In this document: positions 23,599-45,810 of the stretch, piece after piece
How the letters are laid out: each line of letters opens with the position of its first letter
Position numbering within the stretch: the stretch's first letter is position 1
Source: Burkholderia sp. PAMC 26561
GTDB taxonomy: Bacteria; Actinomycetota; Thermoleophilia; Solirubrobacterales; Solirubrobacteraceae
Assembly: GCA_964657595.1 (NCBI GenBank)
Contig: CAZZVR010000001.1
Location: 17,580-81,579, forward strand
Reading direction: 5' to 3'
DNA: 64,000 nt
Translations under genes and position numbers: made by a program
The notes under the pieces: generated by a model
The model's input: only the letters and a program-made list of their open reading frames with translations
What the model was told of the DNA's origin: nothing
Databases searched by the model: none

Positions 23599-24687
23599 AT
23601 GAGCACGACAGGTAGAGCCGCGGTTCTGGTTGAGCCGAACCGATTGGAGACGTGGGAGGTGCCAGTCACAGATCCCGAGCCTGGCGGCGTTCTCGTCAGG
23701 GTGGTCATCGGTGGCGTGTGTGGCAGCGACAAGCACATCCTCACCGGCGAGGCGGGGATCATGCCCTTCCCCATCATCCTCGGGCATGAGGGCATCGGCC
23801 GCATCGAGAAGCTGGGATCAGGAGTGTTCAGGGACTACGCCAGCGTCGAGGTCAGCGAGGGTGATCTTGTCTACTGGGCCCCCAGCGCACTCTGTGGTCA
23901 CTGTTACAACTGCACGATTCTCGACGCACCGCCGTGTGAGAACTCAGAGTTCTTCGAGCATGCTGAGCGACCCAACTGGGGAAGTTACGCGGACTACGCC
24001 TGGCTGCCTCGTGGAATGGCGTTCTTTCGCCTACCGGATCACGCCCGACCCGAGGCTCTGGCCGCGCTGGGTTGCGCCCTCCCCACCGCCCTGGGCGGCT
24101 ATGAACAGGTCGCCCCGATTCAGGTCGGCGACACGGTAGTCGTGCAGGGGGCCGGACCCGTGGGACTCTCGGCAGTCCTGATCGCCGCGGTCGCGGGCGC
24201 CGCCGAGATCATCGTGATCGACCGCCGTGAACAGCGGCGGGAGGTGGCCATGGCGCTGGGCGCCACGCACACGATCTCCCGAGCTCAGTTCGATGAACCG
24301 CAACGGCGCGAGATGATCTACGACATCGTCGGGCCACACGGCCCGAACATCGTCGTCGAAGCTGCGGGCGCGCTGTCGGCCTTTCCCGAGGGCGTGGCGC
24401 TCACCGGCGAATACGGTCGGTACGTCGTGCTGGGACTCTGGGGGGAGATCGGCACCTCGACGCTGTCACCGCGGGATCTCACGACGCGGAACGTCACGAT
24501 CGGCGGCGCCACGTTCGCCAAGCACAAGCACTACTACCGAGCGATGAAGCTCGCGGCACAGGTACAGGACCGGTATCCGCTCGCTGACCTGATCACACAT
24601 CGGTTTGCTGTCACCGACGCGGCGGAGGCGTTGGAGACGATCGGAACGCCCGACGCCATCAAGGCGATCATCGATCCCACCCTCTGA
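23599..24687 (+). CDS. camD: Zn-dependent alcohol dehydrogenase, 5-exo-hydroxycamphor dehydrogenase (CamD)-like
   Basis: CGSD, GHE, GAGPVG; long stretches (MPFPIILGHEGIGRIEKLG, PNWGSYAD, PEALAALGCALPT, SPRDLT, QDRYPLADLIT) match P. putida CamD as recalled. Confidence 0.8.
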   Translation: MSTTGRAAVLVEPNRLETWEVPVTDPEPGGVLVRVVIGGVCGSDKHILTGEAGIMPFPIILGHEGIGRIEKLGSGVFRDYASVEVSEGDLVYWAPSALCGHCYNCTILDAPPCENSEFFEHAERPNWGSYADYAWLPRGMAFFRLPDHARPEALAALGCALPTALGGYEQVAPIQVGDTVVVQGAGPVGLSAVLIAAVAGAAEIIVIDRREQRREVAMALGATHTISRAQFDEPQRREMIYDIVGPHGPNIVVEAAGALSAFPEGVALTGEYGRYVVLGLWGEIGTSTLSPRDLTTRNVTIGGATFAKHKHYYRAMKLAAQVQDRYPLADLITHRFAVTDAAEALETIGTPDAIKAIIDPTL

Positions 24688-24719
24688 ACCGTGGGCCGTG
24701 GTACTTGAGCACCACCAGC

Positions 24720-26120
24720 TCAGGCGAAGATCTTGCCCGGGTTGAGGATGCCGTTTGGATCGAGCTGCTGCTTGATTCCGCGCATGATCGGGAGTGCGTC
24801 GCCATGTTCCCACTCCAGGTACTTCGTCTTCCCCATCCCGATCCCGTGCTCGCCGCTGCAGGTTCCACCGCGAGCCAGACAGTCGGCCACGATCTCATCG
24901 TTAGCGGCGCGGTAGCGGGCAACGTCCTCAGGATCATCGTCGTCGATGGCGAACAGCACGTGGTAGTTGCCGTCGCCGACGTGCCCAAGCACCTGTGGTT
25001 CGAGGCCGAGGTTCTGCATGATCGCTCGCGCAGCTCGGACGGCGCCCGGTAGCTGTGATAGCGGCACACAGGTATCGGTGCTCTTGATCGTCTTTCCCTT
25101 GTTCGCCTCAATGACGGCAAAGGTGACGTCGTGCCGAGCTGCCCATAGGCGCGTGCGCTGGGTCGGGTTGCTTGACTCGTCAAACGACACGAGTCCAAAG
25201 CCCTCCGCGATCTCGCGCGTCGACTCCAGATCTCCCTCGACCCCCGCCCGGGTGCCGGCGAGCTCGATGAACAGATGGGGACACTCGGGCAGCGCCGTGT
25301 GCTTGAAGGTGTTGACCGCAACGATCGTGGCCCGATCGAGCAGCTCGACGCGGACAGCCTGAACGCCGGCTCCAACGATCGCCGCCGCGCAGGCGCAAGC
25401 ACCATCGAGATCCTTGAACGCGCATCGAATTGCCAACTGGTGGTCGGGAATCCCGTAGAGCCGCAGCGTTGCCTCGGTGATGACGCCGAGCGTGCCCTCC
25501 GAGCCGATCAGCAACTGGGCGAGGTTGTAGCCGGCCGAGGACTTCATCGTCCGAGACCCGAACCGCACGATGCTGCCGTCCGCAAGGACGGCTTCCAGCT
25601 CGAGCACGTTCTGGCGCATCGAGCCGTAGCGGACCGTCGTCGTCCCGCTTGCATTGGTGGCGGCCATTCCGCCGATCGTCGCGTCAGCCCCGGGGTCAAC
25701 GGGGAACCAGAGGCCGTGCTTGGCCGCCGCGCGCTCGAGCGTCATCCGGAGGACGCCAGCACCAACCGTCGCCTGCAGATCCCCGGGACGGATCTCGATA
25801 TCGGTCAACCCCGAGAGGTCCAGGCAGATTCCGCCGGCCAGCGGCACGGTATGGCCCTCGTTGCTCGAACCCGCGCCAAAAGCGACCACCGGGATGAGAT
25901 GCTCATTGGCGTACGCGAGCACCGCACTGACCTCCTCTCGTGTGTGCACGTAGACGACGACATCAGGCAGGTGGCCCAGGAAGTGGCCCATGTAGGGCTC
26001 GCCGTGCAACCGTCGGTCGGAATCGCCGACAGTGAGCTTTCCCCCATCAGTCAGGAGCTCACCCAACTCGTCGGCGAGCCTTGCGAGGGCAGTGTCGCTC
26101 AGCACGGCTTCGCGGCTCAT
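24720..26120 (-). CDS. FAD-linked oxidase, D-2-hydroxyacid dehydrogenase/GlcD-like
   Basis: [38 protein letters not shown]. Confidence 0.9.
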
Positions 26121-26893
26121 GGCGTGACCGGGGACATCATGTCGATGGCGGCCAAGGCCTGGTGGGGGAAGCCGAGGATCTGGTTCTCGTGCACGAGACG
26201 ATCGATCTCCCGCTTCATCAAGATGCGCGTGTACCGAATGGCGAGATCGGTCTTTCCAGCGATCTGCCGGGCGAAATGACGCGCACGCTCGAGCACCTGT
26301 TCGGGCGGCAGAACCTCGTTGACGACCCCGAGCGCGAGCGCCTGCTCCGCATCGAGCGTCTGGCCTGTGAGCAGGAAGAAGCGTCCCCGATTCATCCCCA
26401 ACAGCAAGGGCCAGATGAACTGCACGCCGTCCCCGGGAACGATGCCGGACGGGAAGTGAGGGCCGTCCTGGAAGGAGGCGGTGGTCGAGGCGATGGTGAT
26501 ATCCGACAGGATCGGGATCTCCGGATGGATGGTCGCCGGACCGTTGATGGCAGCGATCACGGGAACCTCGATGTCGAGCAGATTGCGAACCAGCCGGCGA
26601 CCCTCGAAGGCGATGTGCGCCCAGTCCCGCGGCGACGACAGACCGAAGCTCGTGAAGTCGATCTCGTCGCAGAAGTTGGCCCCAGTGCCCGCGAGTACGA
26701 CAACCCGGTTCTGTCGGTCAGCGGCGACATCGGCGAACGCATAGGCCAGCTCGTCGTGCGCGTTGGCGGTCCAGATCAGGCTGTCGCCGTCAGTGTGGAA
26801 GGTCATCTCGAGAATGCCCTCGTCATCTCTTTGAAAGCGGATGTTCTGATACTTCTGCCGGTACTCCTCCAATGGGGGGGCCAGAATCTCCAT
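26117..26893 (-). CDS. Crotonase-fold beta-diketone hydrolase, 6-oxocamphor hydrolase (CamK)-like
   Basis: AHDELAY, EIDFTSF, HPEIP and [16 protein letters not shown] match Rhodococcus CamK as recalled. Confidence 0.82.
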
Positions 26894-26911: not shown

Positions 26912-27991
26912 CTAGTTTCGGCCTGCGCCGACGGCTGAATCAAGTTGTGCGGCGAGGAGCCGTTCGTGGTCGATGCCGTCCCCGAAGCGGCGTTCGCACT
27001 CGAGCACGCGCCGCTGAAGCAGGTGCGCGTCATGCAGCCATGTGAATCCGATGCCCCCGAACACCTGCAGTGCACCTTCGACGATCTCCCGTGCCGAGCG
27101 GCATGCGTAGGCCTTGGCCACCGACGCGGCCAGCGGCCCGTCCTCCAGATCCTCCTCGAGCGCGGCCGAGGCGTACAGGACCGTCGACCAGCTCGTCTCC
27201 CGGCGAACGAGCATGTCGGCAAGCAGATGTTGCAACGCCTGGTTGGAGCCGATGGACCTCCCGAACTGCTGTCGCTCCTTCGCGTAGTCGACCGCCATCT
27301 CGAGCGCACGAGTCGCCGCTCCTAAAGCCTCGGCCGCGGTGGCCACCGCACCGATTGCAAAGGCCCGGGCGAGCACGGTTGGATCGCGCGTGAGGACGCT
27401 GTCGACCGGGGTTCGATCGAACGTCACCACACACGCACCGGCGCTCGGATCCAGACCGGGGGACGCCGTGATGGCGCATCCCTCGGCGTGGGGGGAAAGC
27501 AGAACCACCGCCGGTTCCGCATCCAGCATCGCGTACACGGCGAGGCGGTCACACGCGGCGGCTTGATGGACGGCCAGCTTTGTGCCGGTCACGCGCAGCA
27601 GAGCTCCATCGGCGACCGCCTGGGTGTCACAAGCGTCCGACATCCACCCCGCGTTTGACTCCAGCACGGCGAGCGCACAGCTCACCTCCGCTTCCTCCCC
27701 TGTCATCCCAGAGGCGAGCCGCAGGCTGACCGCAGAGTCGACGAGCAGCGTGGGTGCTGCGTGATATCCGACTTCCGCGGCGAGGAGACAGAGCCCGGGC
27801 AGCCCGAACGGATCATCCCGGTCGATCCCGACGCTGTGCCAGCCGAGTTCGGCGATCTCGCGGATCAGCGGGGCGGGGTCACCGACGCCATCAAGCTGCG
27901 CCCGGGCGCTGCCAAGGTCGCCACGCCCGCCGAGCAGCTTGCGCGCCTCGGCCTTCAGAGCAGACTGCTGGCGGTTGAGCTCGAGATCCAT
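26912..27991 (-). CDS. Acyl-CoA dehydrogenase, short (beta-type) subunit
   Basis: YAKERQQFGRSIGSNQALQH, QVFGGIGFTW. Confidence 0.88.
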   Translation of the reverse strand: MDLELNRQQSALKAEARKLLGGRGDLGSARAQLDGVGDPAPLIREIAELGWHSVGIDRDDPFGLPGLCLLAAEVGYHAAPTLLVDSAVSLRLASGMTGEEAEVSCALAVLESNAGWMSDACDTQAVADGALLRVTGTKLAVHQAAACDRLAVYAMLDAEPAVVLLSPHAEGCAITASPGLDPSAGACVVTFDRTPVDSVLTRDPTVLARAFAIGAVATAAEALGAATRALEMAVDYAKERQQFGRSIGSNQALQHLLADMLVRRETSWSTVLYASAALEEDLEDGPLAASVAKAYACRSAREIVEGALQVFGGIGFTWLHDAHLLQRRVLECERRFGDGIDHERLLAAQLDSAVGAGRN

Positions 27992-29169
27992 TAGGCACTC
28001 CGGGGTAGGTTCAGGATGCGCTGAGCGATGATGTTCTTCTGGATCTGACGGCTGCCGCCATAGACAGATGCAGCGCGTCCGTAGAGGTAGATCTGCTGCC
28101 AGACGGCGAGGTCACCGACGGACTCGTGCTCGGGCGCAGCGGCGTAGGGGCCGAGGACGTCGAGAATCGTCTCGGCAAGAACATGCTCGGTTTCACCGAG
28201 CATCACCTTGTCGATCGAGCTGTCGAAGCCGACGGTCCCCGAGGTGATCGTCCGGCCGACACTGTGGTAGGTCTGATGCTTGAGAACTTCCAGCTTGACC
28301 CGGGCTCGGGTGAGCGCCTGGCGAATCTCGGGCGACTCGATGGCCGGGAGTCCGTCACGGGGAATCGTCCTCGCGACATCAACCAGCCGATCGAGCATGA
28401 CGCTCAAGGTCGCCTGCCGCGTCACGGCGTAGGGACCGCGCTCATGAGCCAGGGTGTGCATGGCCAGACCCCAGCCTCCATTCAGATCCCCGAGGACGTT
28501 CTCACGGGGGACGAGGACGTCCTTGAAGAACACCTCGCCGAACTCGGCTTCGCCGGTGCTCATCACCAGCGGCCGGACCTCGACGCCCGGTGAGGTCATG
28601 TCGACAAGCAGGTAGGTGATGCCCTTGTGAGCCGGGGCATCGGGCGCGGTGCGGGCGAGGACTGCGCACCACTGTGCGTACTGCGCGTACGAGGTCCACA
28701 CCTTCTGCCCGCTGAGGCGGAAGTGATCGCCCTCATCCACCGCTCTCGTCCTCAGGGACGCCAGATCAGACCCGGCGTCCGGCTCTGAGAAACCCTGGCA
28801 CCAGATGTCCTCCGCGGTGAGGATGCGATGCAGGTAGGCGTCCTTCTGAGCCGCGGTTCCGTGCTGGATGATCGTCGGCCCGACGACGTCGACCCCGACG
28901 TAGCCCACCAGCTGGGGAACACGAGCGCGTGCCATCTCCGCGCCGGCGATGATCTGCTCGCTCAGCCCCAGGCCTCCGCCGTCGTACTCCGCCGGCCACG
29001 AGAGCCCAATCAGGCCCGCCCGATGGGCGTGGCGCTGCCATTCGCGCATATAGGCGACGTGGCCATCGAGATTGGTCGGTATCTCGCCGGGTTGTGGCGC
29101 ATGGTCGGCCAGGTAGGAGCGAATCCTCTCCTGTAACGCACGCTCGCTGTCGGTCAGGGACAGTCTCAT
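27991..29169 (-). CDS. Acyl-CoA dehydrogenase, long (alpha-type) subunit
   Basis: WCQGFSEPDAGSDLA, GQKVWTS, VYGGS; ATG 29169. Confidence 0.9.
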   Translation of the reverse strand: MRLSLTDSERALQERIRSYLADHAPQPGEIPTNLDGHVAYMREWQRHAHRAGLIGLSWPAEYDGGGLGLSEQIIAGAEMARARVPQLVGYVGVDVVGPTIIQHGTAAQKDAYLHRILTAEDIWCQGFSEPDAGSDLASLRTRAVDEGDHFRLSGQKVWTSYAQYAQWCAVLARTAPDAPAHKGITYLLVDMTSPGVEVRPLVMSTGEAEFGEVFFKDVLVPRENVLGDLNGGWGLAMHTLAHERGPYAVTRQATLSVMLDRLVDVARTIPRDGLPAIESPEIRQALTRARVKLEVLKHQTYHSVGRTITSGTVGFDSSIDKVMLGETEHVLAETILDVLGPYAAAPEHESVGDLAVWQQIYLYGRAASVYGGSRQIQKNIIAQRILNLPRSA

Positions 29170-30305
29170 GCTCGCTGCATGATCAACGTGGAGCAGTTCC
29201 CGCCGGCACCGAGGGCAAGGCTCATACCGGTTCGCGCCCCTGGGACCTGACGCGCCCCACAACGGCCTCGGAGCTGCTGGACGATCTCATACACCTGGCC
29301 CAGCGCAGAGGCGCCGACCGGCTCCCCTTTGGACAGCAGGCCGCCCGACGGGTTGACGGGGATCCGCCCGCCCAGACTGGTGGCACCGCTCTGCACGAGC
29401 TCTCCACCCGCCCCAACCTCACAGAGTCCGACCTGCTCGGTGGCAATGATCTCGCTGGACGAGTCGGTGTCCTGAAGCTCGAGCACATCGAGATCGCCTG
29501 GGCCGACGCCTGCCGACGCGTAGGCCTGATCGGCCGCGCGTTTCATCACGTGGGGAAGCGTCACCTCGCGAATCGGCGAGAAGGTCGGCATGTGCTCGCC
29601 GATCGCCTGATCGATAGCGGCCGTACCGAGACCCTGCCCCAACAGCTTCACCTCACCCTTCGCGGCGGGCCGGCCGGTGATCAGTGCGGCCGCGGCCCCC
29701 TCGTTCGGGCTACATAGCATGAGCAGTCGCAGCGGGTCGACGACCATCGGACTGGCGAGAATCTCCTCCAGCGACAGTTCCTTGCGATACATGGCCTTCT
29801 CGTTGTGCACCGAGTGGCGGTGGTTCTTGACCGCAACGAGCGCGAGCTGACGCTCGGTCGTACCGTGCTCATAGATGTGGCGCTGGGCACCCATGGCGAA
29901 CTGCGCGGGGTTCAGCGCGTGCCCGATCTGCTGGCGCCAGGGCTCGAAGAAATCCATGCGCATCGCCCCGCGCGGCATCTTCTCGATGCCGATTGCCATG
30001 ACCGTTCCGTAGGCGCCCGAGTCGACTGCCTGGCGGGCCATCTGGAGTGCCGCCCCCCCGGACGAGCACGCGTTCTCCACGTTGATGACGGGAATCCCCG
30101 TCCGGCCCATCAGGCTGGTCAGGCGTTGACCCGCCCCGGTGTGTGCATACATGTGGCCACAGAAGAGCGCATCCACGTGCTGCCAGGTCTCACCCGCGTC
30201 ACCGAGCGCCTCTTCGATCGCCTCGGCTCCGAGTTCCAGAGTGGACTTGTCGGCGAACCGGCCGAACGGGTGCATCCCGACTCCGCGAATGACGATGTCG
30301 CTCAT
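29166..30305 (-). CDS. SCP-x-type thiolase
   Basis: VENACSSG nucleophile, CSPNEGAAA, NPSGGLLSKGEP. Confidence 0.88.
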   Translation of the reverse strand: MSDIVIRGVGMHPFGRFADKSTLELGAEAIEEALGDAGETWQHVDALFCGHMYAHTGAGQRLTSLMGRTGIPVINVENACSSGGAALQMARQAVDSGAYGTVMAIGIEKMPRGAMRMDFFEPWRQQIGHALNPAQFAMGAQRHIYEHGTTERQLALVAVKNHRHSVHNEKAMYRKELSLEEILASPMVVDPLRLLMLCSPNEGAAAALITGRPAAKGEVKLLGQGLGTAAIDQAIGEHMPTFSPIREVTLPHVMKRAADQAYASAGVGPGDLDVLELQDTDSSSEIIATEQVGLCEVGAGGELVQSGATSLGGRIPVNPSGGLLSKGEPVGASALGQVYEIVQQLRGRCGARQVPGARTGMSLALGAGGNCSTLIMQRA

Positions 30306-30709
30306 GCGTCCTCCATCACATAGGCGTAGGAGAGCACCGGGCCCTCCTCGGTGTTCACCTCAAGCAGCTCAAAGTGCACGGGCGCACCGATGGACAGCGC
30401 CTCGATCGGGCTGGCCAGCAGGGTGCTGGCGACGCGGATACCGTCAGGGAGGTCGACGAGACCGATGCCGAAGGGAACCTCCCCGCTGTACCCAGGCGGG
30501 GGGAAACGGGCAATCGCAAAGCTGTAGATCGTGCCCGTCGTCGCCAGGTGGACCACCTCCGGGCCCTTCGTCCCGCAGAACGGACAGTAGGACTCTGCCG
30601 GGAAGGAGAGGGAGGTACACGACAGACAGCGACCACCAAGAAGGGCGGGAGGGGCCACGCTGATCAGCTGGTCGCGGACAGCCGCCAGCCTGCTCACTTC
30701 GGTGTTCAT
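30302..30709 (-). CDS. DUF35 Zn-ribbon/OB-fold protein
   Basis: CxxC...FP...CPxC plus OB-fold. Confidence 0.88.
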   Translation of the reverse strand: MNTEVSRLAAVRDQLISVAPPALLGGRCLSCTSLSFPAESYCPFCGTKGPEVVHLATTGTIYSFAIARFPPPGYSGEVPFGIGLVDLPDGIRVASTLLASPIEALSIGAPVHFELLEVNTEEGPVLSYAYVMEDA

Positions 30710-31596
30710 CGGACTCCCTCGGGGACCGCGTTGGGGACCTGCCAGGGGTCATCCCAGCGATCCCGGACCTTCACGGGTGCGTGGTAACGCATCCCGGGAA
30801 TGGTTCCGCCATCCACCCGGATGTCGGTCCCGGTGATGTAGCCGCCGCCGGCTCCGATGAGAAATTCGACCGTGGCGGCGATCTCCATCGGGTCACCAAC
30901 GCGGCCGAGCGGCGTGTTGCGCAGAGCCTTCACAGCACCGGTGCCATCACCACTCTCGCGCCGACCCATCTCGGTGTCGATCACCCCGGGAGACACCGAG
31001 ACGATGCGGGTTCCGCGCTCAGCGAAGTCCCGCACCTTTCGCTCACAGAGGACGATGACGCCGCGCTTGGACAGCGCATAGGCTGCGCGCTGCTGGCCCT
31101 CACTGGCATCCACCAATTGATCCAGTACGCCCTCACCCAGCGGCTCAGCGAGAAGCTCGTCGTAGCGCTCGGCGCGACGACGATGTCCGGACATCGACGC
31201 GATGCACACCGCGGCCCCGCCCGGCGCGAGCAGCGGGCCGAGTTGCTCGATGATGCGGGCTGTCCCGAGCAGGTTCACCTCGAGAATCGTGCGGGCGTCG
31301 CCCATCGAGGCGGAGACACCTGCAGAGTGGACGAGCGCCCCCACCGAGCCATGCTCGCCGGCGCGCTGAGCCAGCTCTGCGACGGATCCGGAGTCGGCGA
31401 TGTCGCAGGCCTGCAGCGTGACGTCTGCGCCGTCGTGCAGAAGCATGGCCTGGACATCCTCCAGTGCGGCAGCGTTACGGTCGGCCAGCAACAGGCGGTA
31501 GCGAGGTGCCAGACGCTCGGCCACGGCTCGGCCGATGCCGCTGCCGGCACCCGTGATCACCGCCACTCGGGTCTCAACTGAATCCGCCATCTCCAT
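30706..31596 (-). CDS. SDR oxidoreductase (3alpha-HSD/carbonyl reductase-like)
   Basis: TGAGSGIG, HSAGVS, YALSK; start reassigned. Confidence 0.85.
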   Translation of the reverse strand: MEMADSVETRVAVITGAGSGIGRAVAERLAPRYRLLLADRNAAALEDVQAMLLHDGADVTLQACDIADSGSVAELAQRAGEHGSVGALVHSAGVSASMGDARTILEVNLLGTARIIEQLGPLLAPGGAAVCIASMSGHRRRAERYDELLAEPLGEGVLDQLVDASEGQQRAAYALSKRGVIVLCERKVRDFAERGTRIVSVSPGVIDTEMGRRESGDGTGAVKALRNTPLGRVGDPMEIAATVEFLIGAGGGYITGTDIRVDGGTIPGMRYHAPVKVRDRWDDPWQVPNAVPEGVR

Positions 31597-32054
31597 CACC
31601 GCTCCGATCCTGCCGTTGGTGTGCTGAGACCGAGGCGCCGGCGGCGTTCTTGCGCCACGGCATCGACTCGGGTGATCAGAGTGTCCAGCGGTGTCCCGCC
31701 GGGAAAGACATCGGCCACGCCGAGATCCAGCAGGGCTTGACGCTCGGCGTCGGTGGCCACGGTTCCCCCGACGACGATCGCAACCTCGTGGCGCATGCCG
31801 CGGCGCTCCAGTTCGGTCAACAGCGTCTCCGTGAGAGCGATGTGGGCGCCCGAGAGGATGCTCAGCCCGATCACGTCGACGTCCTCCTCGATCGCGGTGC
31901 CGACGATGACCTCGACCGGGACGTGCCGGCCCGTGTAGACGACCTCCATCCCGCCGTCGCGTAGTGCGCGGGCCACGATCCGGGCGCCGCGGTCGTGCCC
32001 ATCCATCCCGATCTTCGCGACGAGCACGCGTACTGGCCAATCCATGGAGCTCAC
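31596..32054 (-). CDS. Acyl-CoA mutase cobalamin-binding small subunit
   Basis: GMDGHDRG, GLSILSG, VGG. Confidence 0.93.
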   Translation of the reverse strand: MSSMDWPVRVLVAKIGMDGHDRGARIVARALRDGGMEVVYTGRHVPVEVIVGTAIEEDVDVIGLSILSGAHIALTETLLTELERRGMRHEVAIVVGGTVATDAERQALLDLGVADVFPGGTPLDTLITRVDAVAQERRRRLGLSTPTAGSER

Positions 32055-35365: not shown

Positions 35366-35392
35366 CTGGGCTATGCCTCTCTCCACTCCGCA

Positions 35393-35421
35393 AGTGTAAG
35401 TAACGTCCAGAGTCTTGTCAA
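35393..35421 (-). promoter_or_regulatory. SigA-like promoter of the 11-gene mutase operon
   Basis: Minus strand TTGACA-17 bp-TACACT. Confidence 0.65.
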
Positions 35422-36997: not shown

Positions 36998-37837
36998 TCA
37001 CCTCACGGCGACACCCCCATCAATCGGAACGGATATGCCCGTCACGAACGCGGCGTCATCCGAGGCGAGCCACGCAACCACGCTGGCGATCTTCTCCGGA
37101 GGGATCATTCCTGGATCGGGCAACGGCAGGATCGGTTGAAACGACGTCAGAAACAGCCGTGAATCCGCCGTCTCCGCGCCACCGCTCAGCGCGACGGGAC
37201 CCGTCGGATCGTTGGCCATGATCGTGTTTACGGGGCCGGGGTCGATGGTGTTGACCCGGATGCCGAACTCACCGAGTTCCTGGGCCCAGACCTTCATCAG
37301 CCCGTGCACCCCGTGCTTTGCCGCGGCATAGGCGCCGCAGAACGGAAGCCCCTTGATGCCCGCAGTCGACCCCGTCATCACGATCGAGCCGCCGCGGCCG
37401 CCCTCGACCATTCGGCGACCGAACACCGAGACGGTGTTGAAGACGCCGGAGAGATTGGTGTCGATCAGACGCGACCAGCTCTCCCAGTCCGTGTCGAGGA
37501 GCTTTGCGTACGAGCAAATGGCGGCATTCGCCACGATCACGTCGATGGCGTCAAATCCGGCCGTCGACGCCTCGCTGAGCACCGTCTCCAACGAGCTGGC
37601 GTCCGTCACGTCGCCCACCATGGCGAAGCACCTCCGGTCGGCCTCCTCGACGAGGCGCACCGTCTCGTCCAGATCCTCTCGGCTACTGAGCGGGTATCCA
37701 ATCCCCGGGGCGTTGGCGCATATGTCGATCGCCACGATGTCGGCGCCCTCCTGTGCGAGACGGACAGCATGGGCCCTGCCCTGGCCACGTGCCGCACCGG
37801 TGATCACTGCCGTCTTTCCAGCAAGTCTCATGGTCAC
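36998..37837 (-). CDS. Mycofactocin-coupled SDR oxidoreductase
   Basis: ITGAARGQGRAHAV, DIC insertion, YAAAKHG. Confidence 0.9.
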   Translation of the reverse strand: MTMRLAGKTAVITGAARGQGRAHAVRLAQEGADIVAIDICANAPGIGYPLSSREDLDETVRLVEEADRRCFAMVGDVTDASSLETVLSEASTAGFDAIDVIVANAAICSYAKLLDTDWESWSRLIDTNLSGVFNTVSVFGRRMVEGGRGGSIVMTGSTAGIKGLPFCGAYAAAKHGVHGLMKVWAQELGEFGIRVNTIDPGPVNTIMANDPTGPVALSGGAETADSRLFLTSFQPILPLPDPGMIPPEKIASVVAWLASDDAAFVTGISVPIDGGVAVR

Positions 37838-38255
37838 GTTGACTCCCTCTGTTGCATGCGATCGCACGCCCACAACAAGCGCTTGGTCAGATTTGCCCGC
37901 GGCCGTCCCGCGCTTCGTCATCACCGAGAATGCCGGCAGAGCAGGCCGGATCAGCCACCGGACCGGGCCCTCATCTGACACTAACGAGAGCGACCCCCTC
38001 TGAGACTTGAACAATCATTTGTTTCTGTGGTACGGTGCCGTTTGCCAGAGGAGAGGCAACGTGTAGGGATAGGTCACCGTTCCGTGCGCGGAGCCGGTGA
38101 CGGGCCGGAGGTCGTGCGTGTGAGTGGTGCCCCTGGGGCATTGGGTCGCTCTACGAGACTGGCCCTCGCGGTCGGAAGGGGCGTTCGCGAACTCACCCTC
38201 ACGGGCAACCTTGAGCCTGGCGCGTCCGAGGGAATCTGAGGGAAGGAGCTGTTTA

Positions 38256-39431
38256 ATGTTTGTTTTTCGGTCTCGCGTGCGGTCGTCGTTGACGCTGCTC
38301 TGCGGGCTCGCGCTGGTGGCCTTGGTCGCCGCCGGATGCGGATCCAGTTCGAGCAAATCCACGAGCACCCCGGCCAGTTCGTCAACGCCGGCGTCATCAT
38401 CATCGTCATCGAGTGGAAGCAGCTCCACGGCCGCTCTCGCCGCGAGCGTCAAGGCGTTCACGACGAACCCGTCCACGATCTTTCCGACCAAGCCGGTCGG
38501 CAAGACGATTCCGACCGGGAAGACGATCGTCTACGTCAACTGCGGACAGCCTGCCTGCACCGCAGAAGGCGCGTCGGTCACGGCTGCGGCAGCCGTCCTG
38601 GGCTGGAAGGTCACGACCATCAACGCCTCGCCCACGCCGGCGGGCATCCAGAACGCGTTCCAGCAGGCCATTCGCGACAAGCCCGATGCAGTCGCTTCGG
38701 CGGGCTTTGCGGCCAACCAGTACCCGAAGCAGGTTGCCGCGCTGAACGCGGCCAAGATCCCGGTCCTCTCCTCCGCAGGCACCGACGCCACCGGCGCCAA
38801 CGGCATTGCGCTGCAGCTGGCGGGTCCGAGCTCTGAAGCCGCAGCGGCCAAGATCCTGGCTGACCAGGCGTTGGTGGACGCGGGCGGCAAGGGTGAGTTC
38901 GCCAGCGTACTGCTCACCGGATATCCGATCCTGGTCGCCCAGCAACAGGGCTGGGTCAACGAGATCAAGGCCAAGTGCCCGTCGTGCACGCAGAAGTCGC
39001 TGACCCTGGCGCCAACGACCATCGGCACCACCGCAGCCGGGACGATCGCCAACTTTTTGCGGGCGAACCCCAATGTCAAGGGCATGCTGCTCACCTACGA
39101 CCTGCTCGGTGAGGGCCTCAAGCAGGCCGTCGCGGGTGCGGGTGGCACCTACCCGGACACCTACTCCTGGGCGCCGGATGAGCCAGGCCGCCAGGCCCTC
39201 GCCGACGGTGAGCGCACGGCGTCCATCCCGCTCGACTACATCAACGAGGGCTGGGAGACGGTGGACGCGATGGCGCGTATCTTCACCGGCCAGTCACCCG
39301 CACCCGATGAGAACCTGGAGCGGTTCGTCCTGTGGTCCAGCAAATACAACAACGTCCCGACCCCGGCCAGCGTAACGCCGGTCATCGTCAAGGGCTACGA
39401 GGCGCAGTACAAGAAGCTCTGGGGCAAGTGA
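38256..39431 (+). CDS. CUT2-type ABC substrate-binding lipoprotein 3
   Basis: Lipobox AAGC; close paralog of 21015 (GKTIVYVNCG, YPDTYSWAPD); AAGGAG RBS. Confidence 0.87.
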   Translation: MFVFRSRVRSSLTLLCGLALVALVAAGCGSSSSKSTSTPASSSTPASSSSSSSGSSSTAALAASVKAFTTNPSTIFPTKPVGKTIPTGKTIVYVNCGQPACTAEGASVTAAAAVLGWKVTTINASPTPAGIQNAFQQAIRDKPDAVASAGFAANQYPKQVAALNAAKIPVLSSAGTDATGANGIALQLAGPSSEAAAAKILADQALVDAGGKGEFASVLLTGYPILVAQQQGWVNEIKAKCPSCTQKSLTLAPTTIGTTAAGTIANFLRANPNVKGMLLTYDLLGEGLKQAVAGAGGTYPDTYSWAPDEPGRQALADGERTASIPLDYINEGWETVDAMARIFTGQSPAPDENLERFVLWSSKYNNVPTPASVTPVIVKGYEAQYKKLWGK

Positions 39432-39509: not shown

Positions 39510-40478
39510 ATGACCAGAAGTCACCCACCACTCGACCCAGAGCTTGCCGCAGTTCTCCCGACCGTGCACCAGGTGCTGCCGCCGGGCATTGCCCCTGACG
39601 ACATCGCCGCCCTGCGAGCCCACCCGATGTTCACGATCGCGGACGAGAGCCTGCGGCGCAACGAGACCGTCGAGCTGGCAAACCTCTCTGTACCAGGGCC
39701 GCTGGGCGCTCCCGATATCTCGCTGCTCGTCCTCACTCCCGTGGGGGTGGGACCGGGGGCCGCGGTGTTCTACTACATGCACGGCGGGGGCATGATCATG
39801 GGTGATCGTCGCACCGGCGTCGACAGGGTGCTCGACTGGGCCCTGGACAACGACGCCGTCGTGGTGTCGGTCGAGTACCGCCTGGCACCCGAGCACCCCG
39901 ACCCAGCGCCCGTCGAAGATTGTTACGCGGGCCTTCGCTGGGTCCATGATCATGCGGCCGAACTTGGCGTCGACGCAGACCGGATCATTCTCGCCGGCCG
40001 AAGCGCAGGCGCCGGTCTCGCCGCTGGGGTGGCCCTGCTCGCACGCGACCGCGACGGACCCGGGATCCGTGGTCAGGTCCTCCTGTGCCCGATGCTCGAC
40101 GACCGGTTCATCACGCCGAGCAGCCACGAGCTCGACGATGAGGGCATCTGGGACGCCACCAGCAACATGACCGGCTGGAACGCACTTCTGGCCGAGCGTC
40201 GGGGCGGCAGGGACGTGAGTATCTACGCGGCGCCAGCGCGGGCCACCGACTTGCACGGTCTGCCCACCGCTTTCATCGACGTCGGTTCGGTCGAGACGTT
40301 TCGCGACGAGGCCATTGACTACGCCACTCGGCTGCTGCGGGCGGGCGTCCAGTGCGAGTTGCACGTCTGGCCGGGCGGGTTTCACGGCTTCGACGGCATG
40401 GCCCCACAGACCTCGCTGTCACAGGCCGCGATTGCAGCTCAAGCCGCATGGGTCCGCAGGCTCATGGCGGCGAGCTGA
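39510..40478 (+). CDS. HSL-family esterase / lactone hydrolase
   Basis: HGGG, GRSAG, HGF. Confidence 0.88.
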   Translation: MTRSHPPLDPELAAVLPTVHQVLPPGIAPDDIAALRAHPMFTIADESLRRNETVELANLSVPGPLGAPDISLLVLTPVGVGPGAAVFYYMHGGGMIMGDRRTGVDRVLDWALDNDAVVVSVEYRLAPEHPDPAPVEDCYAGLRWVHDHAAELGVDADRIILAGRSAGAGLAAGVALLARDRDGPGIRGQVLLCPMLDDRFITPSSHELDDEGIWDATSNMTGWNALLAERRGGRDVSIYAAPARATDLHGLPTAFIDVGSVETFRDEAIDYATRLLRAGVQCELHVWPGGFHGFDGMAPQTSLSQAAIAAQAAWVRRLMAAS

Positions 40479-40535
40479 CCGGTGGGCCAGACCCCACCCA
40501 TCGCTTACGCACATCAACCAGGTCAAAGGAGAGAT

Positions 40536-41276
40536 ATGTCTGAACATCTAGCAGGCAAGGTCGCCGTCGTCACCGGAGCAGGATCGGGAATCGGACGCGC
40601 CACCGTGCAAGCCTTCCACCGCGAAGGCGCCGAGGTGATTGCGGCCGACATCTCGGGCAAGCAGTTCGAGCTGTCCGAGGAACTCGGAGACGGCGTGCTC
40701 GGCGTCCAGGCCGACGTGACCAAGGGGGAAGACGTCCGCAAGTTTCTGCAGACCGCCGTCGACACCTTCGGCCGGCTCGACATCCTGCATAACAACGCCG
40801 GCATCGACGGGCCGGTGTCGAGTACCGGGGAATACAGCGAAGAGGACTTTGACGCCGTCTGGGCGATCAATGGTCGCGGCGTGTTTCTCGGCATGCGCTA
40901 CGCCATCCCGATCATGCTCGAGCAGGGGAGCGGTTCGATCATCAATACGGCATCAATGGCCTCGCTCCTGGCGTTTCCGGGTATGCCGGCCTACTGCGCG
41001 TCCAAGGGTGCGGTTCTCGCGCTGACCAAGACCGCGGCAGCGGAACTTGCCCCAAAGGGCATTCGGGTCAACGCCGTCCTGCCAGGGGCAATCCGCACTG
41101 CCATCAGCGACAGCCTCCCACCGGAGCTGATCAAGGGTGTCGTCGACGCGACGCCGATGGGGCGCTTCGCGGACCCGTCGGAGGTGGCGAACCTCGTCGT
41201 CTTCCTGGCGAGTGACGAATCGTCGTACATCACCGGCGACGGCATCCTCGTCGACGGTGGCTACTCGCTCGTCTGA
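40536..41276 (+). CDS. Classical NAD-dependent SDR
   Basis: TGAGSGIG, NNAG, YCASK. Confidence 0.9.
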   Translation: MSEHLAGKVAVVTGAGSGIGRATVQAFHREGAEVIAADISGKQFELSEELGDGVLGVQADVTKGEDVRKFLQTAVDTFGRLDILHNNAGIDGPVSSTGEYSEEDFDAVWAINGRGVFLGMRYAIPIMLEQGSGSIINTASMASLLAFPGMPAYCASKGAVLALTKTAAAELAPKGIRVNAVLPGAIRTAISDSLPPELIKGVVDATPMGRFADPSEVANLVVFLASDESSYITGDGILVDGGYSLV

Positions 41277-41329: not shown

Positions 41330-41345
41330 TGATGACGCGGGGCGG

Positions 41346-42179
41346 CTAGACCTTTTCGTGAAAACCGGCGTCCACGGGCAACTGAATGCCAGTGACATAC
41401 CGTGACTCGTCAGAGGCGAGGTACACGACGGCGTGCGAGATATCGACGGGATCGACCCAGGGAACGGGAATGAGGTTCAGCGACGTAAACGTCGCTCCAA
41501 AATCGTCGTAGGTCGGGTTCTCGACGCCCGGTGCGAACAGCTCCCACATCGCCTCGTTCTGATTCATCTTGGTGTAGACGGAACTCGGGTGGATCGTGTT
41601 CACGCGGATGAAATGTGGCGCGAGCTCATTGGCGAGTGAGCGCATCAGTCCGACCACGGCATGCTTGGCAGAGCTGTAGTGCGTGTGGTTGGCAAACCCC
41701 TTGCGTCCCGCCGTCGAGCTGGTGATGATGATCGAGCCACCAGTCCCTTGTTCGATGAGGTGCGGCACCGTCGCCTTGGCGGTGCGGTAGGGGCCATGCT
41801 GGTTGACGTCGATCATGTCCAAGTACTTCTCGTCAGTCATGTCGATGAACGGTGCTTGCGACCAGATCCCAGCGTTGGCGACGACGATGTCAAGGCGACC
41901 GAGTTCGCCGATGCCGTCCGCGACGGCTTGATCGAGCTGCGCCTGATCGCGGACATCCGCCTTGGCGATGATCATGCGGCGGTCGAGTTTCTCGACCAGG
42001 CTCTGGGTCTCCTCGAGCTCGGCCGACGTGCCGAGCTCATAGGGCACCGAACCGATCTGCTCGCAGATGTCGACTCCAATGATGTCCGCGCCCTCCTCGG
42101 CCATCCGCACGGCATGCGATCGGCCCTGACCACGCGCCGCGCCGGTAATGAACGCAACCTTGCCATCCAGTCTTCCCAT
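41346..42179 (-). CDS. Mycofactocin-coupled SDR oxidoreductase (close paralog of 4428)
   Basis: N-terminal 80 aa nearly identical to 4428..5261. Confidence 0.92.
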   Translation of the reverse strand: MGRLDGKVAFITGAARGQGRSHAVRMAEEGADIIGVDICEQIGSVPYELGTSAELEETQSLVEKLDRRMIIAKADVRDQAQLDQAVADGIGELGRLDIVVANAGIWSQAPFIDMTDEKYLDMIDVNQHGPYRTAKATVPHLIEQGTGGSIIITSSTAGRKGFANHTHYSSAKHAVVGLMRSLANELAPHFIRVNTIHPSSVYTKMNQNEAMWELFAPGVENPTYDDFGATFTSLNLIPVPWVDPVDISHAVVYLASDESRYVTGIQLPVDAGFHEKV

Positions 42180-42222: not shown

Positions 42223-42522
42223 TCAGAGGGCGCCCTGGCCCGGCGATCCCACGGGGTGAGCGTGCAGCTCCTTGACGTCGACCGTCAGACCCGTGAGAAC
42301 GCGACCGAGTTGCTTGAGGGCGGCACCCTGGCGATGCGCGTCCAGGGCGTCCTGGTCAGCCCACTTCTCGATCATGACCACGCAGTCCGCATTTTCGTGG
42401 AGCGCGTACAGCTCGCACCCCGGTTCGGAATGCACGGCGCTGATCGCTGCTTCAAAGGCTCGTACGAGCTCGGCACGGGACTCAGGGTCGGGGACGATGG
42501 TTGCGACGAGAATGATGCTCAT
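42223..42522 (-). CDS. ABM-family putative quinol monooxygenase
   Basis: EPGCELYALHE...IEKW...H. Confidence 0.85.
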   Translation of the reverse strand: MSIILVATIVPDPESRAELVRAFEAAISAVHSEPGCELYALHENADCVVMIEKWADQDALDAHRQGAALKQLGRVLTGLTVDVKELHAHPVGSPGQGAL

Positions 42523-42619: not shown

Positions 42620-43210
42620 GTGAGCATGACTTCTGAGGAACTGGAAGCAGCCGTGCGCGTGCTTCAGGATCGCCAGGCCATCCAGGATTGCCTCATGACC
42701 TACTCTCGCGCCGTCGACCGTCTCGATCGCGAGTTGCTGCTCTCGGTCTACCACGCAGACGCGACCGACGACCACGGCGTGTTCGTCGGGTCACCGGAGG
42801 AGTTCGCCGACTGGGCGATCGCGATGCACACCGCGACCCACCTCTCCCACCAACATTGCATCTTCAACTACACGGTCGACCTGCAGGGCGATGTCGCGCA
42901 CACCGAGGCGTACTACATGTTCGTCGGACTCAACCGCACCGGTCGCCCCTACACGATGACCGGCGGGCGCTATCTGGACCGGTTCGAGCGGCGCGATGGG
43001 CGCTGGGCGATCGCCGCCCGCATCTGCGTGCGCGACTGGACCCAGCTGACGGAAATCCCGGCGCACCTCGACCAGGCCGCGATGACCGCGGCGCCCCTGA
43101 CGCCGGAGATCACCGCCCTCATCCGTGCCGGCGCCCAGATCTCCCGCGACCGGGACGACGTGTCCTACCAGCGCCCCCTGCCGGCGCGGACGACGTCCGC
43201 GGCGCACTGA
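42620..43210 (+). CDS. SnoaL/NTF2-like protein
   Basis: YSRAVDRLD...DDHG...[17 protein letters not shown]. Confidence 0.85.
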
Positions 43211-44168: not shown

Positions 44169-44224
44169 TTGGTGCAGGATCGACCTGAAAACCGTCTGGA
44201 ACCGTCTGAGGAGAGGTAATACAG

Positions 44225-45499
44225 ATGAGCGTTGGAGAAGACACGTCCGCTGATGTGCAGACAGGTGGCCATGACGGCATGGCGTCCGAGGGCCGGTTCA
44301 GCCCCGAGGAGCTGACCAAGCGCTACGGCCGGGACATGTTCCGTGACTTCGATCTGGACGACCCGGCGTTCAACAAGCACTTCTTCGACATCCTCGACGA
44401 CATGGTCGAGGGATGTCCGGTTGCGCGCAGCAACAAGGGCGACGGCTATTGGATGGTTACGCGCCAGGAGGACATCCGTCAGGTCGGGCAGGACTGGAAG
44501 ACGTTCTCCAGCGCCAAGGGCTACATGCCCAACCGGCCTGAGGGGTACCCGTATCTGTTCCCGGAGGAGTCCGACCCGCCGATGCATACGGCGTGGCGCC
44601 GGGCCTTGAACCCGCACCTCACCCCGAAGGCGATCGCGGGGTACGACGCGCCGATCCGGGCCGACGCGAACACGCTGATCGACCGGTTCGTCGATCGCGG
44701 TGAATGTGAGTTCGTCAGTGAATTCGCCGCCAAGCTGCCCGGCTGGGCGTTTTTCAAGAACGTCATGGGTGTGCCGGTCGAGGATCTCGACAAGCTCGTG
44801 GCTGGCGTGGAGAACGGCACCTTCGCCCCGGTCGAGGAGCGGGCGGCCCACATGGGTGGCGTGTTCGAGTACCTCGGCACCTACGCGGAGAAGCGTCGTG
44901 ACGAGCCATCCCGCGGCGACATGGTCGACACGATCATCGCCGGCGTCGAGTACGGAGACGGCGTCATGTCCCCCTGGGAGGACCGCGTCAGCGTGCTCGT
45001 CGACCTGACCTTCGGTGGCATCGCCACGACCACGTTCGTGATGGCCGGCGGTATCCATTACCTGGCCACCCATCCGGACGCCCAGCAGTGGCTGGTCGAC
45101 CACCCCGAGGCGATTCCGCGGGCGGTCGAGGAGTTCATCCGCTTCTACCCGCCGGTCGTGGCGCTGGGGCGCACCTGCACGCGCGACGTCGAGGTCGCCG
45201 GTACGCAGATGAAGAAGGACGACTTCGTCATGCTGGGCTACGGAGCCGCGAACCGTGACCCGCGCGTCGTCGACAAGCCGACGGAGATGGACCTCAACCG
45301 TGAGAGCGTGCTGCACTCCGCCTTCGGGGTCGGCGTGCACCGCTGCATCGGCTCGAACCTCGCCCGCCAGGAACTGAAAGTGACCTTCGAGGAGTTCCTG
45401 CGGCGGGTCCCGAAGTTCAGCCTCAAGTCCGGCACCGAGCCGGTCTACGACACCGGCTTCCTCCGCACGATGAAGGACCTCCACCTGGTCTTCAGCTAG
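44225..45499 (+). CDS. Cytochrome P450
   Basis: EFIR (ExxR), FGVGVHRCIG heme ligand. Confidence 0.95.
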   Translation: MSVGEDTSADVQTGGHDGMASEGRFSPEELTKRYGRDMFRDFDLDDPAFNKHFFDILDDMVEGCPVARSNKGDGYWMVTRQEDIRQVGQDWKTFSSAKGYMPNRPEGYPYLFPEESDPPMHTAWRRALNPHLTPKAIAGYDAPIRADANTLIDRFVDRGECEFVSEFAAKLPGWAFFKNVMGVPVEDLDKLVAGVENGTFAPVEERAAHMGGVFEYLGTYAEKRRDEPSRGDMVDTIIAGVEYGDGVMSPWEDRVSVLVDLTFGGIATTTFVMAGGIHYLATHPDAQQWLVDHPEAIPRAVEEFIRFYPPVVALGRTCTRDVEVAGTQMKKDDFVMLGYGAANRDPRVVDKPTEMDLNRESVLHSAFGVGVHRCIGSNLARQELKVTFEEFLRRVPKFSLKSGTEPVYDTGFLRTMKDLHLVFS

Positions 45500-45603
45500 C
45501 CACAGTCTCTCTCCAGACGCCGCGGATCGTCGGTCTGAGCCTGCGCGGCCCAGACCGACGGTCCGTTGTGCGTTCTACCCAACCCCAGCGAGCGGAAGTG
45601 AAC

Positions 45604-45810
45604 ATGACGACGATCAAAGTCAGCTCCCTGTGTTCCGGTCACGGGCGCTGCTACACGCTGTACCCCGATGTCTATGAGTCCGACGACGATGGCTACAACG
45701 CGCACATGAACGGTGAGTTCGAGGTCCCGGCTGAGCTGATCGAGACCGCGCGGGCCGGCGCCAAGGCCTGCCCCGAGCGGGCCATCACGGTCGAGGAGGG
45801 TGAGGGTTAG
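45604..45810 (+). CDS. [3Fe-4S]-type ferredoxin (CxxHxxC...CP)
   Basis: CSGHGRC...CPERAI; directly after the P450. Confidence 0.9.
   Translation: MTTIKVSSLCSGHGRCYTLYPDVYESDDDGYNAHMNGEFEVPAELIETARAGAKACPERAITVEEGEG

Follow-up and report, generated by a model that had tools for sequence, protein, structure and literature searches.

We analysed a window of 64,000 nucleotides (the whole stretch, positions 17,580 to 81,579 of contig CAZZVR010000001.1; G000:C1:17580-81579) from an assembly of 3.87 Mb in 311 contigs (82% complete, ~66% GC). In it, an island of catabolic genes, including two for hydrolases of the 6-oxocamphor hydrolase (OCH, or CamK) family and one for a cytochrome P450 (P450), lies against a complete set of mycofactocin genes. 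An earlier note on this DNA had read it as a mycofactocin-linked pathway for camphor-like bicyclic terpenoids. Genes were called from GC3-rich open reading frames (ORFs) and typed with Pfam and NCBIfam; GC content is ~0.63-0.70 across most of the window. Public contigs and loci used for comparison bear L numbers (L0xx, L1xx), and G074 and G087 are compared genomes. The genes of the hydrolase and P450 set and their putative regulators, in window coordinates, are as follows (percentages are protein identities; SDR, short-chain dehydrogenase/reductase).

1-1164, minus strand: acyl-CoA ligase CoAlig_a (Pfam AMP-binding), cut by the window edge; 54-69% orthologs after DUF35_a in related loci
1116-1532, minus: DUF35/ChsH2-type OB-fold partner DUF35_a (Pfam zf-ChsH2 and OB_ChsH2_C)
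1529-2773, minus: SCPx-type thiolase-fold protein SCPx_a (Thiolase_C_1), nucleophile Cys absent, probable retro-aldolase; 66-78% core-cluster orthologs
2766-3260, minus: MaoC hydratase MaoC_a (Pfam); 57-71% orthologs
8438-9196, minus, and 9199-9819, plus: two divergent TetR regulators with TetR_C_24 domains, candidate operator binders
9931-11583, plus: type I Baeyer-Villiger monooxygenase (BVMO) BVMO_a; best NCBIfam model PtlE-like, below cut-off; 54% ortholog in a Caenibius locus
11580-12558, plus: MaoC-like pair MaoC_b and MaoC_c; 68-74% orthologs in L007 and G074
13668-15350, plus: acyl-CoA ligase CoAlig_b, FadD3-like below cut-off; 49-57% orthologs adjoining P450/OCH
26117-26893, minus: OCH1, OCH-family beta-diketone hydrolase with Gln at the Glu244 position
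26912-27991 and 27991-29262 (the latter PimC-like, below cut-off), minus: heteromeric acyl-CoA dehydrogenase (ACAD) pair
40482-41276, plus: classical NAD(P) SDR, the dehydrogenase that recurs with P450/OCH; in L002 and Rhodococcus pR8L1 its 59-64% orthologs lie beside the P450
43279-44064, plus: OCH2, OCH-family beta-diketone hydrolase, all catalytic residues kept, Glu244 among them; 59-66% orthologs beside P450 orthologs
44225-45499 and 45568-45810, plus: P450 and single-cluster ferredoxin (operator at 44154); P450 orthologs 60-74%, mostly beside an OCH gene

Two OCH-type hydrolases

Both hydrolases match 6-oxocamphor hydrolase of Rhodococcus sp. NCIMB 9784 (1O8U, 1SZO) from end to end (against 1O8U, E 4.9e-101 and 341 bits for OCH1, E 2.5e-97 and 329 bits for OCH2), with an identity of ~60% (62 identities counted in the first 103 aligned columns). 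The Anabaena beta-diketone hydrolase (ABDH; 2J5G, 2J5S), which shares this CoA-independent crotonase fold, comes next at E ~1e-72, and enoyl-CoA hydratases reach at most 100 bits. OCH1 and OCH2 are 50% identical to each other. The equivalents of Trp40, His45, His122, His145 and Asp154 are kept in both and in 18 homologs, which bears out the earlier note as to CamK likeness and the His and Asp residues, just as the P450 and ferredoxin genes indeed directly follow OCH2. Glu244 is kept in OCH2, replaced by Gln in OCH1, and either Gln or Thr across the OCH1 clade; in ABDH the catalytic residues are D153, H144, E243 and H43 (PMC3584854). The family is large, with 2,784 proteins at E<=1e-40, and OCH1 shares 59-65% identity with those from Pseudonocardia, Frankia, Streptomyces and Amycolatopsis, so that ~60% identity to CamK is a family-level likeness. 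A supposed near-identical CamK on plasmid pR8L1 of Rhodococcus sp. 008, considered as a camphor tie for the gene set described below, was set aside as non-decisive: this homolog scores 370 bits against 1O8U, only slightly above the window enzymes.

A conserved core around the P450

OCH2 and the P450 belong to a conserved core (hereafter module A) composed of P450-ferredoxin-SDR-OCH(Glu244)-CoA ligase-ACAD-MaoC-Cys-less SCPx-DUF35, which we found by collecting OCH2 relatives in public genomes and searching their flanks with all window proteins (tblastn). Identities amount to 60-74% for the P450, 55-66% for OCH, 66-78% for SCPx_a, 57-71% for MaoC_a and 59-64% for SDR 40482, and the repeated set comprises a P450 (60-65%) adjoining OCH (59-64%), a 40482-like SDR, CoAlig_b, BVMO_a, MaoC_b/c and the block MaoC_a-SCPx_a-DUF35_a-CoAlig_a (54-75%). 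Its carriers include Sterolibacteriaceae, Sediminihaliea, Caulobacterales and Caenibius metagenome-assembled genomes, Novosphingobium colocasiae, Novosphingobium sp. Fuku2-ISO-50 and Altererythrobacter xiamenensis, as well as two genomes of the same family as the window but of other genera (62-78% identity), with ATP-binding cassette (ABC) importer genes beside the P450 in G087. An Acidimicrobiia contig (L118) holds P450-ferredoxin-CoA ligase-OCH-MaoC-SCPx-DUF35-enoyl-CoA hydratase-CoA ligase in one operon, Protofrankia coriariae and another contig carry OCH-MaoC-SCPx-DUF35, and on Rhodococcus sp. 008 pR8L1 an ACAD-MaoC-SCPx-DUF35-enoyl-CoA hydratase-SDR-P450-ferredoxin series, with the ACAD directly before MaoC, diverges from OCH-CoA ligase. 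The OCH genes of all module A loci have Glu244. Near the OCH-MaoC-SCPx-DUF35 operon of L116, L117 and L118 there is also an Amidohydro_2 gene, followed in L116 and L117 by a small FeS_assembly_P (DUF59) gene; both are absent from the window. The anaerobic steroid ring-A beta-diketone hydrolase is itself an Amidohydro_2 enzyme.

Against its best solved relatives (a CYP125 ancestor, CYP101D, P450cam and P450cin) the P450 reaches 154-179 bits; a genuine CYP101D2 ortholog, by comparison, has 755 bits with CYP101D2 and 414 with P450cam. P450 families being delimited by convention at >40% identity, the comparison with CYP101 and CYP176 that the earlier note had suggested places the window enzyme far outside both, and a protein-atlas search returned generic P450 clusters only. 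No ferredoxin reductase gene was seen in the window. Only 2 of 150 sampled genomes of the family have a P450 ortholog, which fits horizontal spread, and OCH homologs occur in only 2 of 400 genomes sampled at random from the phylum. OCH2 and the P450 are 59-74% identical to their orthologs in Proteobacteria and other genera, as against 40-48% for OCH homologs of the window's own genus.

Mycofactocin genes and the importer module

The other hydrolase, OCH1, keeps different company, listed here together with the mycofactocin locus:

3275-4342, plus: SMP-30/gluconolactonase-type lactonase (operator sites 3265, 3404)
4413-5261, plus: mycofactocin-coupled SDR (TIGR03971, 393 bits; operator 4395)
5615-7204 and 7188-8321, plus: two-domain ATPase and permease of a CUT2-type ABC importer (operator 5390); 61-67% orthologs beside the G087 P450
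21015-22169 and 22305-23489, plus: two periplasmic-binding-protein paralogs (operator 20884); 21015 is 44-47% identical to binding-protein genes of G087 and L111
35456-36325, plus: second SMP-30 lactonase
36998-37825, minus: mycofactocin-coupled SDR (TIGR03971, 308 bits)
38124-39431, plus: third periplasmic binding protein (operator 38009)
41346-42179, minus: mycofactocin-coupled SDR, carveol-dehydrogenase family (TIGR03971, 399 bits)
42223-42522, minus: small ORF upstream of SDR 41346; look-alike stretch at ~55256-55590
42626-43210, plus: SnoaL_4/NTF2-like protein (operator 42574); 60% ortholog in an Aeromicrobium contig
45807-46439, minus: mftR
46492-46629: mftA
46637-46915: mftB
46912-48138: mftC
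48155-49345: mftD
49342-50046: mftE
50007-50822: SDR, subfamily 2
50819-52264: mftF
57509-60047, minus: TIGR03971 SDRs, three in tandem (364-408 bits), no operator; downstream of the mft genes

The mftR-mftABCDEF set is complete, with mftA ending in IDGMCGVY; mftB and mftD were assigned by sequence reading and Pfam FMN_dh rather than by specific models. Seven mycofactocin-type SDRs exceed the curated cut-offs of TIGR03971 and TIGR04504, six of them with 308-408 bits (cut-off 300) and 50007 with 345 bits (cut-off 250). Two side observations concern this part of the window: GC content rises to as much as 0.746 at 50001-52000 (mftF and the end of the SDR gene), and at 55256-60047 the three tandem SDRs are preceded by genes for a MoxR AAA+ ATPase and a VWA protein and by a small ORF resembling 42223-42522. 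Co-clustering of mycofactocin SDRs with mft genes is reportedly known already from work by Haft in 2011. In TIGR03971 enzymes the NAD is non-exchangeable, and the carveol dehydrogenase LimC reduces mycofactocin in vitro (PMC3023750, PMC7491314). The window resembles that system in its complete mft set and its SDRs above cut-off but differs in that here, and in Aeromicrobium, these SDRs have as partners C-C hydrolases of the OCH type and an importer.

This pairing, ABC importer-OCH(Gln244)-mycofactocin SDR, constitutes a second module (hereafter module B). The closest relatives of OCH1 (69-79% identity) all have Gln or Thr at position 244. Importer genes precede the Gln-type OCH in five of five contigs, two of which (L109, L119) have the full set of binding protein, ATPase and permease, and a 279-aa SDR, 66-68% identical to SDRs 4413 and 41346, follows it in all four contigs that extend far enough (L109, L111, L119 and L120 for SDR 4413); the fifth stops just past the OCH gene, at the start of a partial ORF. 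In an Aeromicrobium contig, module B together with SnoaL_4, SMP-30 lactonase and BVMO genes lies directly against mftR-mftABCDEF and a GMC oxidoreductase gene. The partnership of Gln-type OCH and mycofactocin SDR is thus conserved and no accident of this window. By contrast, the SDR that accompanies the P450 and OCH2 is the ordinary 40482, a non-member of TIGR03971 (182 bits against the cut-off of 300), which makes mycofactocin no inherent feature of module A. The suggestion that the hydroxylated product is oxidised by mycofactocin SDRs or a CamD-like enzyme is supported as regards a real link between the island and mycofactocin SDRs and unsupported as regards the conserved partner of P450 and OCH, which is neither a mycofactocin SDR nor the Zn-dependent alcohol dehydrogenase. 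We found no paper combining 'mycofactocin' and 'camphor'.

A shared palindromic operator

The two modules are marked by the same 16-bp palindrome, AAACWA-N4-TWGTTT, taken from the intergenic DNA of the window and searched with up to two mismatches. It has nine matches in the window versus 0.23 expected, and none of 100 shuffles has as many. The sites (3265, 3404, 4395, 5390, 20884, 36326, 38009, 42574 and 44154, with a variant at ~35425) all lie in promoter gaps except 3404; they include the OCH2-P450 gap and divergent gaps adjoining two mycofactocin SDRs, and three of the seven mycofactocin-type SDRs stand at operator-bearing promoters. No further copy was found in the window beyond 44169, which leaves the gene for the fused mutase IcmF, the second BVMO gene and the three SDRs at 57.5-60 kb unmarked. 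The two TetR_C_24 proteins (8438-9819), whose counterparts also accompany the cluster in L116-L118, are the obvious candidate binders. A different palindrome, TTCAAACGTCGTTTGAA, occupies 9880-9915 between the TetR gene at 9199-9819 and BVMO_a and may serve the second TetR. The KstR2 consensus AnCAAGnnCTTGnT was also tried; it gave only two exact and five one-mismatch sites and was dropped in favour of the intergenic palindrome.

The same palindrome lies upstream of P450, OCH or MaoC genes in L002, L004 (six copies, Sediminihaliea), L005, L007-L009, L011, L109, L116-L118, Rhodococcus pR8L1, G074 and G087; these loci include clusters from Rhodococcus, Frankia, Acidimicrobiia and sphingomonads. 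In Aeromicrobium the palindrome is found just upstream of the OCH gene. Its presence in nearly all related loci implies that regulator and operator travel with the pathway across phyla. This distribution bears on the possibility that the island is a mosaic of unrelated catabolic operons fallen by chance beside the mft genes, module B acting on a sugar- or cyclitol-like substrate and module A on another. The two modules do occur separately in other genomes, CUT2 importers and SMP-30 lactonases are typical of sugar and cyclitol pathways, and the island is patchy, as the few P450 orthologs in the family attest. Against it, the same rare palindrome stands at the promoters of both modules in the window and at loci with only A or only B in other phyla, and in G087 the importer orthologs adjoin the P450; we consider a mosaic decidedly unlikely.

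Lower-pathway genes

The remaining genes of the island are:

12839-13600, plus: Abhydrolase_3 esterase
15350-16093, plus: classical SDR
16127-17773, minus: acyl-CoA ligase CoAlig_c
17860-19509, plus: thiamine diphosphate (ThDP) enzyme, acetolactate-synthase type, below cut-off
19527-20774, minus: FMN-dependent 2-hydroxy-acid dehydrogenase, LldD-like
23599-24687, plus: Zn-dependent alcohol dehydrogenase (Zn-ADH) of the medium-chain dehydrogenase/reductase (MDR) type, in a group often labelled CamD
24720-26120, minus: FAD-linked oxidase, GlcD-like
29166-30709, minus: SCPx thiolase SCPx_b (Cys80 kept) and its DUF35 partner
30706-31590, minus: SDR, PRK06940-like below cut-off
31596-32054 and 32051-33682, minus: small and large subunits of a split B12 acyl-CoA mutase, with a MeaB-like GTPase at 33679-34686, minus
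34661-35398, minus: enoyl-CoA hydratase opening the minus-strand operon (operator variant ~35425)
36378-36950, plus: cupin protein (operator 36326)
39510-40478, plus: Abhydrolase_3 esterase

The earlier note had listed two BVMOs, four lactonases or esterases, three CoA ligases, a B12 mutase and IcmF between 23599 and 45810. All of these are present, including two type I BVMO-like genes (starting at 9931 and 52227) and an IcmF of 1152 aa that unites B12-binding, MeaB GTPase and mutase domains in a single chain; the BVMOs, the ligases, IcmF and two of the four hydrolases fall outside that interval, and the set is spread over the whole window. Eleven genes form one minus-strand operon from 35398 to 24720, encoding, in order, the enoyl-CoA hydratase, MeaB-like GTPase, large and small mutase subunits, SDR, DUF35 protein, SCPx thiolase, ACAD pair, OCH1 and GlcD-like oxidase. 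Among solved structures, the mutase comes nearest to the 2-hydroxyisobutyryl-CoA mutase HcmA (E 1e-126). It keeps the equivalents of the carboxylate-binding Tyr89 and Arg207 of methylmalonyl-CoA mutase, with other motifs altered (SGYH to SGSH, RTHSQTSG to RLFNSSNN, QSLHTN to QAITII), and judging from these residues its specificity is probably new to description. Tyr89 and Arg207, together with the PimC-like large ACAD subunit (below cut-off), point to dicarboxyl-CoA substrates. The FMN-dependent 2-hydroxy-acid dehydrogenase adjoining the ThDP enzyme suggests alpha-oxidation.

The two SCPx-type thiolase-fold proteins of the window differ at the nucleophile loop, which reads MVHSGGSTS, with no Cys, in SCPx_a and NACSSGG, with Cys kept, in SCPx_b. 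A Cys-less SCPx_a combined with a MaoC hydratase and a DUF35 protein has the architecture of a steroid side-chain hydratase-aldolase and would remove C2 units by hydration and retro-aldol cleavage. Like the mutase and the alpha-oxidation pair, this presumed aldolase, the BVMO/esterase pairs and the beta-diketone hydrolases offer bypasses where beta-oxidation is blocked, from which we infer a heavily methyl-branched skeleton.

The architecture recalls the ChsH1-ChsH2-Ltp2 system under KstR2, with its MaoC, Cys-less thiolase fold and DUF35 proteins, heteromeric ACAD pair and TetR regulator with palindromic operator, and raises the question whether the genes serve to degrade what remains of a steroid or bile acid (a HIP-like hydrindanedione) by a variant of C/D-ring catabolism. 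The FadD3-like ligase (below cut-off), the acyl-CoA-type TetR and the occurrence of carriers in the steroid-degrading groups Caenibius, Novosphingobium and Sterolibacteriaceae agree with such a substrate. On the other hand, SCPx_a matches Ltp2 (6OK1) with just E 4e-28, the operator is unlike the KstR2 consensus, and no steroid ring-opening genes were seen in the window. The KshA C-terminal domain was not found in the 82%-complete genome of the window, a search in which no control genome exceeded the cut-off (one lay below it). A lead from the anaerobic ring-A beta-diketone hydrolase was abandoned, that enzyme being an amidohydrolase_2 and not a crotonase (PMC11780191), and a B12 mutase, an alpha-oxidation pair and two BVMO/esterase sets exceed the needs of one angular methyl group. 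A steroid remnant is thus highly improbable.

The same hydratase-aldolase genes would also suit a polar trimethylcyclohexanone-type apocarotenoid or sesquiterpenoid acid, for example abscisic acid or its breakdown products, whose side chain would be cut by ligase, hydratase and aldolase before ring opening by P450, SDR and OCH. Bacterial shortening of this side chain is documented: Rhodococcus sp. P1Y is reported to convert abscisic acid to dehydrovomifoliol and then to 1-hydroxy-2,6,6-trimethyl-4-oxo-2-cyclohexene-1-acetic acid, and Novosphingobium sp. P6W to degrade abscisic acid too (PMC7996341, PMC9599779, PMC6938937). A CoA ligase with MaoC and Cys-less SCPx/DUF35 suits retro-aldol C2 removal at a methyl-branched or tertiary carbon, the importer suits a carboxylic acid, and the core is present in both Novosphingobium and Rhodococcus. 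The proposal nonetheless comes from chemical reasoning alone, with a hypothetical ring route to the beta-diketone, and we hold it to be very unlikely.

The alcohol dehydrogenase and camphor

The Zn-ADH at 23599, likened to CamD in the earlier note, has ADH_N and ADH_zinc_N domains and 362 aa, the Zn-dependent MDR fold and nearly the length (~361 aa) expected of CamD. It belongs to a large group with 65-77% identity across Proteobacteria and Rhodococcus, compared with CamD by source labels only: members with 65-69% identity are often labelled 5-exo-hydroxycamphor dehydrogenase (EC 1.1.1.327). A 66% ortholog on plasmid pSH1 of Sphingobium xenophagum directly follows two luciferase-like monooxygenase (LLM) genes and lies ~8 kb from a P450 (755 bits against CYP101D2) beside a 2Fe-2S ferredoxin. 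This neighbourhood gives contextual support to a hydroxycamphor-type role for the group, likeness to CamD itself being a separate matter. The window Zn-ADH lacks the context of a camphor 5-monooxygenase operon and follows two binding-protein genes; no exact copies of it were found among public contigs. The pSH1 region (44402-69472, L085) appears to be a camphor-type cluster in its own right, with the CYP101D2 ortholog, the 2Fe-2S ferredoxin, the two LLM monooxygenases (no PDB match at E<=1e-20), the Zn-ADH, an SDR, an adenylate-forming enzyme, a flavin reductase, dodecin and riboflavin genes.

If the substrate were camphor or a closely related bicyclic monoterpenoid (borneol, fenchone, cineole, 2-methylisoborneol), it would enter such a pathway by 6-hydroxylation and oxidation to 6-oxocamphor, be opened by OCH to campholinic acid and finally yield isobutyryl-CoA for IcmF, isobutanoyl-CoA being the compound in which camphor degradation terminates (PMC4097962). 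OCH is the sole characterised close relative of both hydrolases, the pSH1 ortholog of the Zn-ADH sits in a cluster of CYP101D2/LLM camphor type, and TIGR03971 includes carveol dehydrogenase. Moreover, loss of C2 from campholinyl-CoA would create a second cyclic 1,3-dione and might explain the two OCH paralogs. Enzyme classes, their logical order and the P450 adjoining OCH all recall the Rhodococcus route (P450camr 6-endo-hydroxylation, dehydrogenase, OCH); to our knowledge, the CoA ligase, ACAD, MaoC and Cys-less SCPx/DUF35 of the conserved cluster have not been described there. With the Pseudomonas putida CAM route (CamCAB, CamD, diketocamphane monooxygenases, CamF, CamG/OTEMO) the window shares the CamD-labelled Zn-ADH group, CoA ligases, type I BVMOs and a nearby IcmF, but it has no CYP101 P450, putidaredoxin-type 2Fe-2S ferredoxin or LLM monooxygenases, and its predicted ring opening is hydrolytic rather than by Baeyer-Villiger oxidation alone. 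With no LLM-type diketocamphane monooxygenase present, the idea that both known upper routes are combined here lacks support. The OCH likeness is typical of the whole family, even in the pR8L1 homolog, and the P450 is not CYP101/CYP176-like, which leaves the assignment of a camphor-like substrate unsupported. For a volatile, hydrophobic ketone one would not expect a binding-protein-dependent importer; the CUT2-type system here, with its three binding proteins, suggests a polar substrate. IcmF has no operator. We therefore regard a camphor-type substrate as unlikely.

A proposed pathway for a methyl-branched alicyclic compound

Considering the gene families, the catalytic residues, the common operator and the cross-phylum synteny, we find it fairly probable that ~1-45.8 kb of the window is one TetR-type regulon that catabolises a methyl-branched, probably gem-dimethyl, terpenoid-type alicyclic ketone or acid by means of two conserved modules lying against the mft genes. 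In module A, the P450 and its ferredoxin would hydroxylate a carbon beta to the ring ketone, and the classical SDR 40482 would oxidise the hydroxyl to give a cyclic beta-diketone. OCH2, of the Glu244 type, would then open the ring to a keto-acid by retro-Claisen hydrolysis, and after activation by a CoA ligase the ACAD, the MaoC hydratase and the Cys-less SCPx/DUF35 pair would take off C2 by hydration and retro-aldol cleavage, following the logic of ChsH/Ltp2. Module B (sugar-type importer, OCH1, TIGR03971 SDRs, SMP-30 lactonases and SnoaL_4 protein) may provide, or further convert, a second beta-dicarbonyl intermediate, alcohol oxidation presumably being coupled to mycofactocin and not to free NAD. 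The BVMO/esterase pairs, the alpha-oxidation enzymes (FMN dehydrogenase and ThDP enzyme), the PimC-like ACADs, the SCPx thiolase and the B12 mutase would dismantle the branched dicarboxyl-CoA remnants. Of the mechanism put forward in the earlier note, the general logic (P450 hydroxylation, the beta-diketone, retro-Claisen cleavage, CoA activation, BVMO/esterase steps and treatment of methyl-branched remnants) is supported, and the common operator and the synteny in other phyla strengthen it.

Several points weigh against this reading. Module A exists in Proteobacteria and in G087 (87% complete), where mftC was not found, and in another carrier mftC sits on a separate contig; mycofactocin is therefore no fixed part of the core. 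In two genomes of the same genus the mft clusters lack this island in their flanks, and its adjacency to the mft genes may be recent or accidental. All enzyme assignments below family level are under the curated cut-offs, the sugar-type importer fits a polar molecule, and module B could serve another substrate. Finally, the step order is our inference only, and the putative aldolase role comes from a single missing Cys plus analogy.

On this reading the window has a retro-Claisen, terpenoid-type route in an operator-defined conserved regulon, with a lineage-specific mycofactocin module. More tentatively, and with doubts that outweigh our confidence, we suggest a cross-phylum, horizontally mobile 'OCH regulon' under a single TetR operator, AAACAA-N4-TTGTTT, that degrades a widespread gem-dimethyl alicyclic terpenoid through two successive retro-Claisen openings and that, in mycofactocin-bearing actinobacteria, employs a Gln244 hydrolase subtype together with mycofactocin-dependent SDRs on an imported polar intermediate. 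In that case, mycofactocin dependence would for the first time extend from simple alcohols and carveol to a complete catabolic pathway.

Significance

If the proposed pathway is correct, the mycofactocin SDRs, few of which have known substrates, would be assigned a definite place in a pathway. OCH-type C-C hydrolases, so far mainly biocatalysts with one known natural substrate, would acquire a widespread physiological context along with a testable set of partners, namely the P450, the SDR and the hydratase-aldolase. With the conserved operator, the regulon could be sought in any genome and its inducer tracked down, and the cultivable carriers Novosphingobium colocasiae KCTC 32255, Rhodococcus sp. 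008 and Protofrankia coriariae make the substrate directly testable.

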